Below, piece after piece: positions 49,399 through 55,629 of a stretch of 64,000 bases of DNA (positions within the stretch are counted from its first letter, which is position 1; the number at the start of each line of letters is the position of its first letter). The notes beneath the pieces are model-generated. The model saw nothing but the letters and a program-made list of their open reading frames with translations. It did no database searches and was not told where the DNA came from. The translations under genes were made by a program, and so were the position numbers. This stretch comes from an uncultured Ferruginibacter sp. (lineage in GTDB: Bacteria > Bacteroidota > Bacteroidia > Chitinophagales > Chitinophagaceae), in the NCBI GenBank assembly GCA_964586215.1, contig CAZPHA010000002.1, forward strand, positions 5,388 to 69,387. The letters are read 5' to 3'.

Positions 49399-49429
49399 TT
49401 TGCAATGGCTTAATGCAAATATACCTTTG
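49399..49429 (+). promoter_or_regulatory. Sigma70-type promoter for the bacteriocin-like peptides
   Basis: TTTG(49399-402)-N19-TACCTTTG(49422-29). Confidence 0.65.
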
Positions 49430-49608
49430 AATCATTAATGGATATTTTTCATTTTGCTAACTGTAGAACATTAATTTTCTTCAACAGTCAATAAATTACT
49501 GATTCTATAAAGTTGGAAAAAGAGAAGTGTCATTATAAACATATTTCTATTCTTAATGTGGAGTACTACACATGAAAGATGCAATTTTTTATTTAAATTT
49601 AAAAACTT

Positions 49609-49806
49609 ATGATTATGCAGCAATCAAAATTAAGTAAACTAGAATTTATCTCAATGACTGATATTGAAATGGTCAAAATTAATGGGGGAACAAAATGGCC
49701 TAAATGGTTAAAAGGCTTGGGGGTTGGTTGGTTGGTAGACCAGGTAATAAGTAATTGGGATGAAATTAAAGAAGGGTTTAGAGAAGGTTACAATGCCCGT
49801 GTATAA
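49609..49806 (+). CDS. Double-glycine leader bacteriocin-like precursor 1
   Basis: Leader ends 'MTDIEMVKINGG'; 38-aa Trp-rich core TKWPKWLKGLGVGWLVDQVISNWDEIKEGFREGYNARV with GxxxG. Confidence 0.75.
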   Translation: MIMQQSKLSKLEFISMTDIEMVKINGGTKWPKWLKGLGVGWLVDQVISNWDEIKEGFREGYNARV

Positions 49807-49859
49807 CTCCTGATTTTATAATGAATATAATATTTTTCTTAACTATTAAAACAGAAAAT

Positions 49860-50039
49860 ATGAAAACACTTGAACTAGCAAAAAAAGGTATAATAAGCAC
49901 ATTATCCGCCGAAGAAGCAAAACAAATGGTAGGTGGTGGGTTTTGGGGAGATGTTGCATGGCTTGCCGGAGTAATTGTTCATGGGGCAGTTGTATTTGCA
50001 AAAGAAGGTGGTAGCAATGCAGGCATTTGTGTACGATAA
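49860..50039 (+). CDS. Double-glycine leader bacteriocin-like precursor 2
   Basis: Start reassigned to MKTLEL; leader ends 'LSAEEAKQMVGG'; hydrophobic core GFWGDVAWLAGVIVHGAVVFAKEGGSNAGICVR. Confidence 0.75.
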   Translation: MKTLELAKKGIISTLSAEEAKQMVGGGFWGDVAWLAGVIVHGAVVFAKEGGSNAGICVR

Positions 50040-50053
50040 TATAGCTGTTAGAT

Positions 50054-52512: not shown

Positions 52513-53614
52513 AAAGCATATAAAATTTTGGATTTGTTATTTAGGGTTTCTATGGATATATGCAATTACAAAGAGTTCTAAAGCTGATTTCACTACATTT
52601 CTTGTAACAAACTGTTTGTTGATAAGTGTTTTTTATTACTGCGTTTTATTAATATATCCTTTATTTTTTAATAAAAACAAATTGATAGCAGTAGCCCTGT
52701 TTTTTATAGGTATGTTTGTTTATTTCGGTCTTAGATATACAATCACATATTATTTTCTGCCATTATTTGGTAAGCCTGTTTATGAATTTAAAAAAATAAA
52801 TGAGTTTTTCCCTAATCATACATATTACTATATTACTTATTCCATTTACGGTTTATTATATTGGTATGCACAAAGATCAATTTTATCAGAACGGCAACTC
52901 CGCATTGCAGAGGTACAAAGGCTTTTACTTAAAAATGAAAATCTCCATCTTCAAAATCAAAAAATAAATCTTCAAAATGAAAAAATTAAATTGGAATATA
53001 ATTTTTTAAAAGCACAGATTAATCCTCATTTTTTATATAATACTCTTAACTTTTTCTATTCAAAAATATTGAGCCATTCTGAAGAAGCTGCCGAAGGTAT
53101 TGTTAAACTTACTGATATTATGCGTTATGCTTTACGTCAGGGAGATGCAGATGGAAAGGTATTTATTGAAGAAGAAATTGAACATATACATAATTATATA
53201 AGTTTGCAACAGTTAAGATTTAATAATGCAATCAGTATTTTCTTCAAAATTAATACTGATAAGGAGGGTTGTCGTATTTTGCCTCATATACTGGTTACAT
53301 TGCTTGAGAATGCTTTTAAGCATGGCGACACAATGGATCCCGGACATCCAATTAGAATTAAATTAACTGTGGAAAAAGGAGACTTATTTTATTCCATTCG
53401 CAACAAAATACGCAGAGGGCCTAAATATGAACTTTCTACAGGCGTAGGATTGCAAAACATTGCTGATCGGCTGTCAATGGAGTATGGTGATAAGGCATTT
53501 CTAAAGCATTTTAGCGACGGTAATTTTTTTGAAGTGCAATTGTATATACCACTGCAAAATGGATATGAAATTGATATTATTTCCAATCAAGCTTTGATGG
53601 AGTCGAATATTTAA
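52499..53614 (+). CDS. LytS/YehU-type (His_kinase PF06580-like) sensor histidine kinase
   Basis: N-terminal TMs, 'FLKAQINPHFLYNTLN', 'LLENAFKHG', 'GVGLQNIADRL'; start set at MKIYKK, overlapping the S41 stop. Confidence 0.9.
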   Translation: MKIYKKHIKFWICYLGFLWIYAITKSSKADFTTFLVTNCLLISVFYYCVLLIYPLFFNKNKLIAVALFFIGMFVYFGLRYTITYYFLPLFGKPVYEFKKINEFFPNHTYYYITYSIYGLLYWYAQRSILSERQLRIAEVQRLLLKNENLHLQNQKINLQNEKIKLEYNFLKAQINPHFLYNTLNFFYSKILSHSEEAAEGIVKLTDIMRYALRQGDADGKVFIEEEIEHIHNYISLQQLRFNNAISIFFKINTDKEGCRILPHILVTLLENAFKHGDTMDPGHPIRIKLTVEKGDLFYSIRNKIRRGPKYELSTGVGLQNIADRLSMEYGDKAFLKHFSDGNFFEVQLYIPLQNGYEIDIISNQALMESNI

Positions 53615-53630
53615 ATTATAACAACTACTT

Positions 53631-54341
53631 ATGCTGAATTGTATAATTGTCGATGATGAACAACATGCAGTTGACTTGATGGTACATCATGTTCAACAAA
53701 CTTCATTTCTGAAGCTCATACATTATACAACTAACCCCATTGAAGCTTTAGAAAAAGTAAACACTCAAAAAATTGACCTGGCTTTTGTGGATGTACAAAT
53801 GCCACAGTTATCCGGCCTTGAATTTGTTAAGGCAGTTAAAGGTAACTGTAATGTAATTTTATGTACTGCATACCCTCAATATGCACTAGACGGATTTGAA
53901 AATGATGTGATTGATTATTTGCTTAAGCCGGTAACTTACACCCGCTTTATTAGAGGTGCTCAAAAGGCACTTAATATGCTGGCAGTACGTAATTCAATTG
54001 CTGAGCCAACAGCCTTTGAAAATCACATATTTATCAGGACGGAAAGCAAAGGCAAGATGATTAAAATTGATTTTGATGAAATTGATTTTATTGAAGGGCA
54101 AAAAAATTATATTGCTTTCCATATCGGTAAAGTAAAAAAAATGGCTTTAATGACGATGAAAGAAATTATGGAACGTCTTCAAGGGAAGCGTTTTATAAGG
54201 GTTCATAATTCGTTCATCGTTCCAATTGATAAAATATCCATGATAGAAGGAAATATGTTAGAAATAAAAAATCACCCACAGTTAATACCAATCGGCCCAT
54301 CTTACAAAGAAAGTGTTGTGGAAATTTTACGATTAAAGTAA
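53631..54341 (+). CDS. LytTR family response regulator
   Basis: Receiver 'IVDDE...FVDVQMP...YLLKP'; LytTR 'FIRVHNSFIV'. Confidence 0.95.
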   Translation: MLNCIIVDDEQHAVDLMVHHVQQTSFLKLIHYTTNPIEALEKVNTQKIDLAFVDVQMPQLSGLEFVKAVKGNCNVILCTAYPQYALDGFENDVIDYLLKPVTYTRFIRGAQKALNMLAVRNSIAEPTAFENHIFIRTESKGKMIKIDFDEIDFIEGQKNYIAFHIGKVKKMALMTMKEIMERLQGKRFIRVHNSFIVPIDKISMIEGNMLEIKNHPQLIPIGPSYKESVVEILRLK

Positions 54342-54450
54342 GTATTTTTACTACTCAAATACTATTTTATTTTTTTGAATGTTTTCTTAATCAAATAAAT
54401 GTAATACTTTTAATCTTAATCTAAATCTAAATTACCCGGGAAACAACCGT

Positions 54451-55629
54451 ATGGAAATAGCGGCTACCAAACAGTTTTTCGAACTTCATAAAATTATTGC
54501 AAGTACAACACCTACGAATAATTCATTATTGGGAGGCAAATTGGGTATGGCGCTATATTATTATAGCTTATACGAAGCCTTTTATGATTTAGATTATGGT
54601 GAGAAAAGTGTTGTATTATTAGAAGAAGTATTGCAGGAAATGAGTACAGAAACTCCTGACGTAGCGGGTACTACCTTTGCTTCAGGGGGAGCCGGCCTGG
54701 GTTATGTGGTATCTGCCATGCATCATGGAGGATTAATAGAAATAAATCTGCAGGAGGAGCTTGCTGTATTGGACAAACTTTTGTTTACCGTAGCCATGGA
54801 GCAAATTACACAGCGTGATGCTATAGATTATTTGCATGGCGCCATGGGTGTGGTACATTACTTTACACAGCGATTACCGGATACTACCATCGAAAAATAT
54901 ACTTTACAAATTCTTCAGGCTTTATGCAATAGAGCTATCGAAGAACCGGAAGGAATTTGGTTTCAAAACTATGTAATTGATGAAAGAGAGAAGGAGCAAA
55001 TCAACCTGAGCCTTTCACATGGGCTGTCAGGGTTAATTATTTTGCTTGTAAATGCACAGCAAAAATTGCCACGTCAGGGTTTTCTATACCATACCATTGC
55101 TGAATGCGTTGCTTTTATATTGGCTCATTATATTGACATAAGCTCCGAACAGAAAGATGGGGCTTTTTTTCCTTCTACCATTGATCGAAATCAGCGGGAT
55201 AGTAGGTTTTACACGCCACGGTTGTCTTGGTGTTATGGAGATTTAAATGCTGTTCTTGCATTATATACTGCGGGGAATTTGCTGGAGCGTCCCGAATGGA
55301 CCAGCAGAGCTGATGAACTTGGGAGTGCTACTTTTATGCGCAAATCATTGGATGATGTGGCAGCTAGGGATACTCATTTTAGCCATGGCACCTCGGGGGT
55401 AGCACAATTTTATCAACGGTTTTATGAAATGACCCATAAAAAGATATACGAATCAGCCCGTGATCATTGGATTGAACAGACCCTCAACCTATTGCCATCC
55501 GAAATGCAGAAAAAATTTTATGCCGGTAAAGAGTGCGATTTATTGGAAGGACTGGTGGGAGTAAATTTATCCCTGGTTTCTTACATTAGCGACCGAAAGT
55601 TAGCCTGGAGCAAAGCATTGTTGTTGTAA
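54451..55629 (+). CDS. Lanthionine synthetase LanC-like protein (stand-alone)
   Basis: Repeated GxxG helices, 'SLSHGLSG', 'RLSWCYGD', 'FSHGTSG' (CHG position), 'LLEGLVG'. Confidence 0.88.
   Translation: MEIAATKQFFELHKIIASTTPTNNSLLGGKLGMALYYYSLYEAFYDLDYGEKSVVLLEEVLQEMSTETPDVAGTTFASGGAGLGYVVSAMHHGGLIEINLQEELAVLDKLLFTVAMEQITQRDAIDYLHGAMGVVHYFTQRLPDTTIEKYTLQILQALCNRAIEEPEGIWFQNYVIDEREKEQINLSLSHGLSGLIILLVNAQQKLPRQGFLYHTIAECVAFILAHYIDISSEQKDGAFFPSTIDRNQRDSRFYTPRLSWCYGDLNAVLALYTAGNLLERPEWTSRADELGSATFMRKSLDDVAARDTHFSHGTSGVAQFYQRFYEMTHKKIYESARDHWIEQTLNLLPSEMQKKFYAGKECDLLEGLVGVNLSLVSYISDRKLAWSKALLL

Follow-up and report, generated by a model that had tools for sequence, protein, structure and literature searches.

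A META-kup peptide locus of a Ferruginibacter sp. as the probable satellite half of a class I lanthipeptide/GG-bacteriocin system split between two loci

Genes and signals between META and kup

We analyzed a 64-kb stretch of DNA (C2:5388-69387, here called the window) from the genome of an uncultured Ferruginibacter sp., a 3.08-Mb assembly in 113 contigs, and focused on a group of nine small and large open reading frames (ORFs) located between the META and Kup genes. These encode three peptides with a Gly-Gly (GG) leader (pepA, pepB, and pepC), a peptide with a single transmembrane (TM) helix, a CPBP/Abi protein, an S41 peptidase, a sensor histidine kinase (HK), a response regulator (RR) with a LytTR domain, and a homolog of the lanthipeptide cyclase LanC (W_LanC). 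The ORF list and scans with Pfam and NCBIfam confirmed all nine genes and their domains at the places given in a preliminary description of this DNA. All of them were on the + strand, and all nine reading frames were intact, with neither frameshifts nor premature stops. According to an alignment with its paralog, the HK likely starts at 52499, which gives an overlap of 14 nt with the stop of S41. The coordinates of all features are listed in Table 1.

No gene for the dehydratase LanB (PF04738/PF14028), C39-ABC, or HlyD, and no remnant of one, was found in the window by tblastn, and neither LanB nor an exporter was present over at least ~55 kb of the contig around the locus. A dedicated exporter or leader protease, either a LanT with C39 or a LanP, was likewise missing from the window. 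The GC content was 25 to 29% in the S41-HK part and 41% in LanC. A foreign origin of LanC based on base composition was rejected, since the paralogs on contig C7 (see below) follow the same trend by gene type (27% for the S41d gene).

Table 1. Coordinates (window positions) of the genes and sequence features at the META-kup locus
Feature	Position	Strand	Description
META	48776-49255	-	Upstream flank
Putative LytTR-type half-sites	49360-49369; 49383-49392	+	CAATCTTGTC and CATCGGTGTA; just 5' of the pepA promoter; predicted binding sites
Promoter of pepA-pepB	49399-49429	+	Bacteroidota type, TTTG-N19-TACCTTTG
pepA	49609-49806	+	65 amino acids (aa); GG leader ending INGG; Trp-rich, Cys-free core
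pepB	49860-50039	+	59 aa; ORF from 49821, likely start ATG 49860; leader ending VGGG; hydrophobic; core ends HGAVVFAKEGGSNAGICVR
Intrinsic terminator after pepB	50055-50087	+	Hairpin GGTAGG...CCTACC + U7; -13.5 kcal/mol, z -3.4
Single-TM peptide	50118-50204	+	28 aa; candidate immunity or accessory peptide
CPBP/Abi intramembrane protease-family protein	50212-50691	+	PF02517, 48 bits; candidate bacteriocin immunity
Direct repeat 5' of pepC	50758-50779	+	Perfect, TTGTTTGG-N6-TTGTTTGG
pepC	50833-51012	+	59 aa; class-I-LanA type; leader LVLNKRTIVKF...VKGG (LxLxKx5F...GG); polar one-Cys core YDNGGGGNQSDPRVCNSQNDTVEAK
Stable hairpin after pepC	51051-51078	+	Attenuator or terminator; -14.7 kcal/mol, z -3.7
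S41 peptidase	51112-52512	+	PF03572, 58 bits; exported; probably Ser/His type
Sensor histidine kinase	52499-53614	+	Membrane; PF06580 (LytS/YehU type), 87 bits; ORF from 52427
Response regulator	53631-54341	+	PF00072 (Response_reg) + PF04397 (LytTR)
LanC cyclase homolog (W_LanC)	54451-55629	+	PF05147 (LANC_like), 115 bits; clade A
Ser311 codon of W_LanC	55381-55383	+	AGC; second zinc-ligand Cys position; SHG versus CHG
Kup	55794-57815		Downstream flank; GTG start

Related clusters in the genome and in other Bacteroidota

A search of the whole genome found one LanB (1039 aa, 471 bits) and a second LanC, both on contig C7, as well as four C39-ABC transporters, on contigs C7, C6, C18, and C68. 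The earlier statement that LanB and an exporter are missing thus holds for the window but not for the genome. The gene order of the C7 cluster was HK, pepA', a 56-aa TM peptide, pepB', CPBP, HlyD, C39-ABC, LanC, LanA (orf74), S41, HK, RR, three more S41 genes, and LanB. The LanA product of orf74 has 74 aa, with the form …IKLNKRTIAKF…INGG-QINPTNGGDGPQTNSCVACISARVYDDPCN.

For each window protein, the best match in the genome was found in the C7 cluster. The values were 55% for the RR receiver domain, 44% for the HK (versus HK1, in an alignment from residue 25), 28% for S41, and 25% for LanC. The levels of identity were 54% for pepB and pepB', which hardly differ over the last 19 residues of the core, 36% for pepC and orf74, 30% for CPBP and the 159-aa CPBP of C7, and 28% for pepA and pepA' (E value of 4e-5). 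No homologs of the 28-aa TM peptide were found; the 56-aa TM peptide occupies a similar place at C7 and is unrelated to it. The window locus is therefore a divergent copy of a cluster that is complete at C7, and what it lacks is exactly the machinery genes. At C7, the pepA'/pepB'/CPBP module abuts HlyD and C39-ABC, whereas only CPBP is adjacent in the window. The C7 regulator (L009 15157-15759) has a GerE/LuxR output domain and the window regulator a LytTR domain, an output-domain swap between the paralogous loci.

The same site was then compared in two congeners. In G016, the region from FtsZ-META to Kup contained a larger cluster with LanB directly beside the ortholog of W_LanC. The order there was a pepC-like peptide (…KKLELKKSTITKF…VAGG-GDKGGGGN…), a split S41, HK, another leader peptide, the orthologs of the window HK (69%), RR (68%), and LanC (58%), LanB, and Kup. 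The S41 gene of G016 (L019 15176-16304) was interrupted by ~1.1 kb of DNA that has ORFs on the other strand and may be an insertion element. This assembly is rich in frameshifts, which affect even the hydrolase gene and kup (the latter is in pieces), so pseudogene calls in it are unsafe. In the window, the 165-bp spacer between LanC and kup had no homology to the G016 LanB. In the other congener, G013, META and Kup were separated by a spacer of about 315 bp that contained no genes. Since the site is filled with a larger cluster in G016 and empty in G013, META-kup is a variable site, and the locus is an insertion there. In a LanB tree, the C7 LanB was sister to the G016 LanB (SH-aLRT 99). The single LanB of the genome is therefore the counterpart of the LanB that partners the W_LanC ortholog, as predicted for a split or rearranged cluster.

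To place W_LanC among its relatives, a pattern scan with one genome per species was used, which yielded 79 Bacteroidota loci with LanC relatives. LanB was located within 10 kb of LanC in most of them. Homologous loci normally carry LanB and an exporter, which the preliminary description had named as a finding that would refute its proposal. The order LanB-[C39 ABC]-[S41]-HK-LytTR-LanC was recurrent among the closest relatives (L023 from Niastella, L032 from Ferruginibacter, L035, L027, and L036-38 from Flavihumibacter). The LanC tree had two clades. Clade A LanCs always adjoin HK-LytTR and are nearly always within LanB clusters; this clade includes W_LanC, which was sister to the G016 LanC (99/97), followed by L022 (100/100). 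Clade B LanCs, including the one from C7, adjoin LanB and LanT. Both clades were represented within one cluster in L030 (Pedobacter) and in L039, from a GTDB genus mate. The window genome contains a single LanB and two LanCs, one from each clade, which is the gene set of one L030-type cluster distributed over two sites.

Some loci with full 10-kb flanks lacked LanB, and five of these were examined (L033, L022, L044, L057, and L087). L033, from Taibaiella chishuiensis, consisted of five tandem LanAs, HK, RR, and LanC, and L022 of a LanA-like peptide, HK, RR, and LanC. A LanB gene was found elsewhere in all five of these genomes. The scattered layout is therefore recurrent, and a lone LanC needs no new chemistry to be explained. 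According to Walker et al. (PMC7268733), 3052 of 12705 LanC-like proteins have no recognized partner nearby.

We next examined the active site of W_LanC. Of 81 aligned LanCs, 79 had the catalytic His and the full set of three zinc ligands (H-C-C-H). Only W_LanC had a Ser at the second zinc-ligand Cys (FSHGTSG versus FCHG), a position that was excluded from the LanC search patterns. The residue is Cys in the solved LanC structure 8byk (fCHG) and in the G016 ortholog, and the AGC codon of Ser311 is one base away from TGC. Loss of a zinc ligand is expected to cripple cyclase activity, going by the zinc ligands of NisC. A general decay of LanC was considered and rejected: among 84 columns that do not vary in four outgroups, W_LanC had 4 private changes and the G016 LanC had 5. 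Ser311 may reflect a recent inactivating mutation, a tolerated deviation, or an error in the consensus. A second LanC of G014/L039 (L020 14650-15843), 3' of HK-LytTR, lacks Cys at both of the zinc positions (WVNSDL and FKNGSSG) and is more degenerate than W_LanC.

Other peptide loci were also observed in the genome. GG-leader peptides were encoded near each of the other three C39-ABC transporters: three similar peptides of 47 to 50 aa at C68:4480-8107, two Cys-rich peptides of ~90 aa at C18:37430-38109, and MKKLSSSQTQSVNGG-CVGICLQ at C6:59269-59403. A shredded LanB relic was present at ~2000-2350 of contig C38, flanked by genes for a membrane protein and a sigma-54-type regulator. It comprised one fragment from the N terminus, MSIPYTFHNKLVIRSP…, and another, …LVNELEPAITGKEF…, that matches LanB residues ~200-250. 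This relic suggests a third lanthipeptide locus, which has decayed.

Precursor peptides, the S41 cassette, and candidate control signals

The pepA and pepB genes are 53 nt apart and share one promoter and one terminator. The only family match of pepA was to lactococcin G-beta, through the leader alone (20 bits, under the cut-off). Matches to two-peptide bacteriocin families were restricted to the leader region, at 20 and 16 bits versus cut-offs of 37 bits, so the peptides could not be assigned to a known family. Among 5.8 billion proteins, pepB had just two copies, both from this genome. A wider pepB family was rejected after 300 genomes of the order gave 2 weak matches, one of them beside a C39-ABC gene. 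One Ser and one Cys (…GGSNAGICVR) are kept in both pepB paralogs, and a single C-terminal ring may be formed in pepB. Judged by their sequences, pepA and pepB are a candidate two-peptide bacteriocin, unmodified in appearance, and the CPBP/Abi protein is likely its immunity factor. CPBP proteases normally have an EExxxR motif. In the window CPBP and its C7 paralog (L010 3589-4068), motif 1 is ETLIF (ET instead of EE), and FxxxH and HxxxN are kept.

The pepC leader fits the pattern LxLxKx5[L/F]...GG and scored 18.1 bits against the "class I lanthipeptide" leader model NF038153 (cut-off, 22). For the class I LanAs of Bacteroidetes, leaders of the type LxLxKx5L...GG have been described together with C39 proteases (PMC7268733). 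The core is short and polar, with 1 Cys, 2 Ser, and 1 Thr, and that of the G016 ortholog starts with GDKGGGGN. The motif DPRVC is common to pepC and the peptides of the stand-alone cassettes L102 and L161.

These cassettes were found through the closest relatives of the window S41 (36 to 41% identity). In all seven contexts examined (in L101, L102/103, L104, L159, L160, and L161), a leader-bearing peptide gene was followed by S41 and then by HK, with LytTR present wherever the contig extended far enough. L104 encodes a peptide with a GG leader and a TM helix, and its contig ends inside HK. The cassette peptides have LxLxKx5L leaders and polar cores that contain Cys. No LanB or LanC was present around L101 and L102 in the retrieved DNA (up to 10 kb on each side). 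In lanthipeptide clusters (L023, L032, L033, and L035), the peptide encoded immediately 5' of (S41)-HK-RR-LanC is polar and Cys-poor, whereas the other LanAs of the cluster are hydrophobic and Cys-rich. A further peptide type, with a GG leader and a TM helix (…GGKL.(D/N)E.EN.R.AN..G.LI..FLLFQFCVV.ALV.K), adjoins S41 or HK genes in L019+L021 (G016; 12941-13195) and L104 (6449-6598) and is distinct from the polar LanA-like peptides. No description of the peptide-S41-kinase-LytTR cassette was found in the literature searched, where the topics of S41 and lanthipeptides and of LytTR and lanthipeptides of Bacteroidetes gave only a review of the nisin resistance protein NSR.

The S41 protein has an N terminus resembling a signal peptide. 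His86 and Ser375 (in GSASE) were invariant in 71 homologs, and at what we take to be the position of the GKG motif, the Lys is apparently replaced (YGAGD). An AF2 model (pLDDT of 90) had a generic S41 fold, matching CPAF first, followed by CtpA and S41 proteins of Bacteroides; NSR (4y68) ranked 41 (TMt of 0.69). The protein has GSASELF and not the TASSAEM motif. A specific relationship to NSR was rejected, since a PDB sequence search gave no match to NSR and CPAF and CtpA ranked first in the fold search. S41 proteins are widespread in Bacteroidota. A link to peptides for the whole family was also rejected: in 14 genomes of the order, distant members were mostly solitary, and only a close subclade was cassette bound. 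Signal processing and NSR-like degradation are both possible roles.

Candidate control signals were found upstream of pepA, and a direct repeat was found upstream of pepC. The pepA promoter was the only full match to TTTG-N17-23-TAnnTTTG within 48.5 to 56.5 kb, and the half-sites in front of it formed an imperfect pair with a spacing of 23 bp. This region could be aligned with the promoter of the pepC-like peptide of G016 over one half-site and the -33 and -7 elements, with ATCGGTGTATTA.ATTT identical. The two copies of TTGTTTGG upstream of pepC were the only ones on the + strand of the window. In related cassettes, two or three AATCCGTC-like repeats with a period of 21 to 22 bp were located 5' of the peptide genes; they were clear in L102, L161, and L101, and L159 and G016 each had a pair of half-sites. 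Such a period is the classic geometry of LytTR sites. Because of these repeats and the alignment of the pepA and G016 promoters, autoregulation by LytTR and control of pepA-pepB are supported, although this is not proof. Strict ATC[CTG]GT-N15-ATC[CTG]GT pairs were considered and rejected, with 14 in the genome versus ~9 expected and 0 in the locus. Just 5' of the GTG start of kup (55733-55763), within the LanC-kup spacer, TAnnTTTG boxes were present at 55733 (TACCTTTG) and 55756 (TACTTTTG).

Interpretation and comparison with known systems

The locus is probably a satellite that contributes regulation, immunity, and extra peptides to a class I lanthipeptide/GG-bacteriocin system of a kind typical of Chitinophagales. 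In this view, the system has been split into two halves, and its dehydratase and exporter act in trans. Its first unit would extend from the pepA promoter to the terminator, encoding pepA and pepB, followed by the TM peptide and CPBP genes. The second would consist of pepC, S41, the membrane HK, the LytTR regulator, and LanC, a block that is embedded in many class I lanthipeptide clusters of Chitinophagaceae. LanB, a canonical LanC, and C39-ABC with HlyD would be supplied from the C7 cluster, and three further C39-ABC transporters are encoded in the genome. A C39-ABC acting in trans would cut the GG leaders and export the peptides. The kinase would then sense pepC, possibly after modification by LanB/LanC and/or trimming by S41, and the LytTR regulator would activate the pepA-pepB promoter with its ATCNGT-type half-sites. 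A peptide-regulated bacteriocin module borrowing LanB and export in trans was one of two alternatives in the preliminary description, and it is favored by the complete paralogous cluster at C7 and by the orthology of the C7 LanB to the G016 LanB beside the W_LanC ortholog.

Several observations weigh against a split system served in trans. As the C7 cluster has a regulator type of its own (GerE), any cross-talk with the window locus is hypothetical. In a 113-contig draft, the separation of the C2 and C7 loci derived from contig coordinates, at least ~60 kb, is only a lower bound. The core of pepC has a single Cys, and the 21-bp-period repeats of related cassettes were not found before the window pepC. 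W_LanC, alone among the 81 LanCs, departs from the His and Cys/Cys/His site, and because this change should cripple the cyclase, the lanthipeptide arm is perhaps no longer functional at all, rather than supplied in trans. Since LanB is no longer adjacent and Ser replaces a zinc-ligand Cys, the lanthionine arm of the window copy is possibly compromised or on its way out, being either trans dependent or starting to decay.

Taken further, the same observations would make the locus a decaying remnant, in which LanB was lost or relocated, pepC and LanC are nonfunctional, and at most an immunity/regulatory island (CPBP, S41, and HK-RR) is left with pepA and pepB. Relative to the orthologous G016 site, LanB is missing only here; the unique Ser of W_LanC results from a single-base change, its terminal branch is longer than that of G016 (0.37 versus 0.23), the pepC core is short with its one Cys, and the C38 relic indicates that such clusters decay in the lineage. 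We nevertheless consider this rather unlikely, given nine ORFs free of lesions, no excess of changes at the conserved LanC columns, and a pepC leader with motif and GG intact. Moreover, LanB-less LanA-HK-RR-LanC loci with functional-looking cores exist in genomes that keep LanB elsewhere. The absence of LanB from the window, and the many LanC-like proteins without a recognized partner (PMC7268733), could also suggest new chemistry, with a stand-alone LanC-like enzyme acting without a dehydratase, e.g., by LanCL-like thiol addition. This second alternative of the preliminary description is hardly credible: W_LanC is nested in a clade that is nearly always in LanB clusters, its ortholog adjoins LanB, the window genome and all five other genomes with LanB-less loci have a LanB, and one of the zinc ligands required for thiol activation is lost.

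A different explanation concerns the S41-HK-LytTR block, which could be an NSR-like sense-and-degrade resistance module, with S41 cleaving lanthipeptides or bacteriocins of competitors (or its own) under two-component control and taking no part in signal processing. NSR, whose gene accompanies those of the two-component system NsrRK, belongs to the S41 peptidases and has a Ser236/His98 dyad (PMC4828448). The invariant His86 and Ser375 of the window family, the apparent absence of the catalytic Lys, the presence of NSR among the fold matches, and the four S41 paralogs at C7, an expansion that suits an immunity role, would agree with such a module. However, NSR scored well below CPAF and CtpA and had no sequence match, and no NsrFP-like ABC transporter is present. 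The S41 gene followed a LanA-like or other leader-bearing peptide gene in all seven of the closest contexts, which fits the processing of a cognate peptide at least equally well. We therefore regard a resistance module as improbable.

We tentatively suggest that the cassette could be an undescribed autoinducing-peptide circuit of Bacteroidota with an agr-like logic, to which a dedicated clade A LanC is added in lanthipeptide clusters. The peptide, sometimes lanthionine bridged by its own cyclase and S41 trimmed, would be the signal for neighboring bacteriocin/lanthipeptide operons, and the window would contain a working copy controlling pepA/pepB. The locus had been presented as the best candidate in the window for an undescribed system, which is not supported because the W_LanC clade is linked to LanB clusters. 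Its sole possibly new element is the cassette as a putative peptide-sensing circuit, a plausible hypothesis.

These results remove a tempting but false lead, as a solitary LanC cannot be taken as a sign of LanB-free chemistry if the dehydratase is located on another contig. This is relevant to genome mining, where about one-fourth of LanC matches are "unclassified" (PMC7268733). The peptide clusters of Bacteroidota are assembled from movable modules (GG bacteriocin with CPBP, peptide-S41-kinase-LytTR, two LanC clades, and LanB with LanT), and within a single genus these are split apart, duplicated, and subject to decay. If the cassette is a signaling circuit, it would be a rare case of quorum sensing through peptides among the Gram-negative Bacteroidota and would offer a way to activate silent lanthipeptide clusters.

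The locus shares features with several known systems. Class IIb two-peptide loci of Firmicutes, of the plantaricin, sakacin, and mutacin IV type, have Abi/CPBP immunity genes and unlinked transporters. The adjacent GG pair with a shared promoter and terminator and the CPBP gene beside it are similar to these loci, but the host is a Gram-negative member of the Bacteroidota, the cores have no relatives outside their own genome, and motif 1 of CPBP is ET. With the three-component systems agr, blp, pln, and com, the locus shares a small GG-leader peptide gene beside a protease, a membrane kinase, and a LytTR regulator. Their direct repeats with a 21-bp period are matched in related cassettes, the window itself having only a weak pair. 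The window kinase belongs to PF06580 (LytS/YehU) and not to HPK10, the protease is an exported S41 instead of AgrB or a C39 domain, and the peptide leader is of the lanthipeptide type. The NSR operon (S41 protease, NsrRK, and NsrFP; PMC4828448) also combines an apparent Ser/His S41 with a two-component system in a lantibiotic context. The window differs from it in lacking sequence similarity, the TASSAEM motif, and a BceAB-type ABC transporter, and in window-type cassettes a cognate peptide gene is always located 5' of the protease. The remaining comparison is with the Bacteroidota class I clusters that have LxLxKx5L...GG leaders and a C39 LanT (Walker et al. 2020, PMC7268733; pinensin and the PedA type of Pedobacter). 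The window copy differs from these by the absence of LanB and an exporter, by the Ser at a zinc-ligand Cys of LanC, and by a short polar core with one Cys. It shares with them the leader type of pepC and the LanC homolog; the C7 paralog and the G016 locus both have LanB, C7 also has C39-ABC, and the HK-LytTR-LanC block recurs in loci of Niastella, Ferruginibacter, Flavihumibacter, and Pedobacter.

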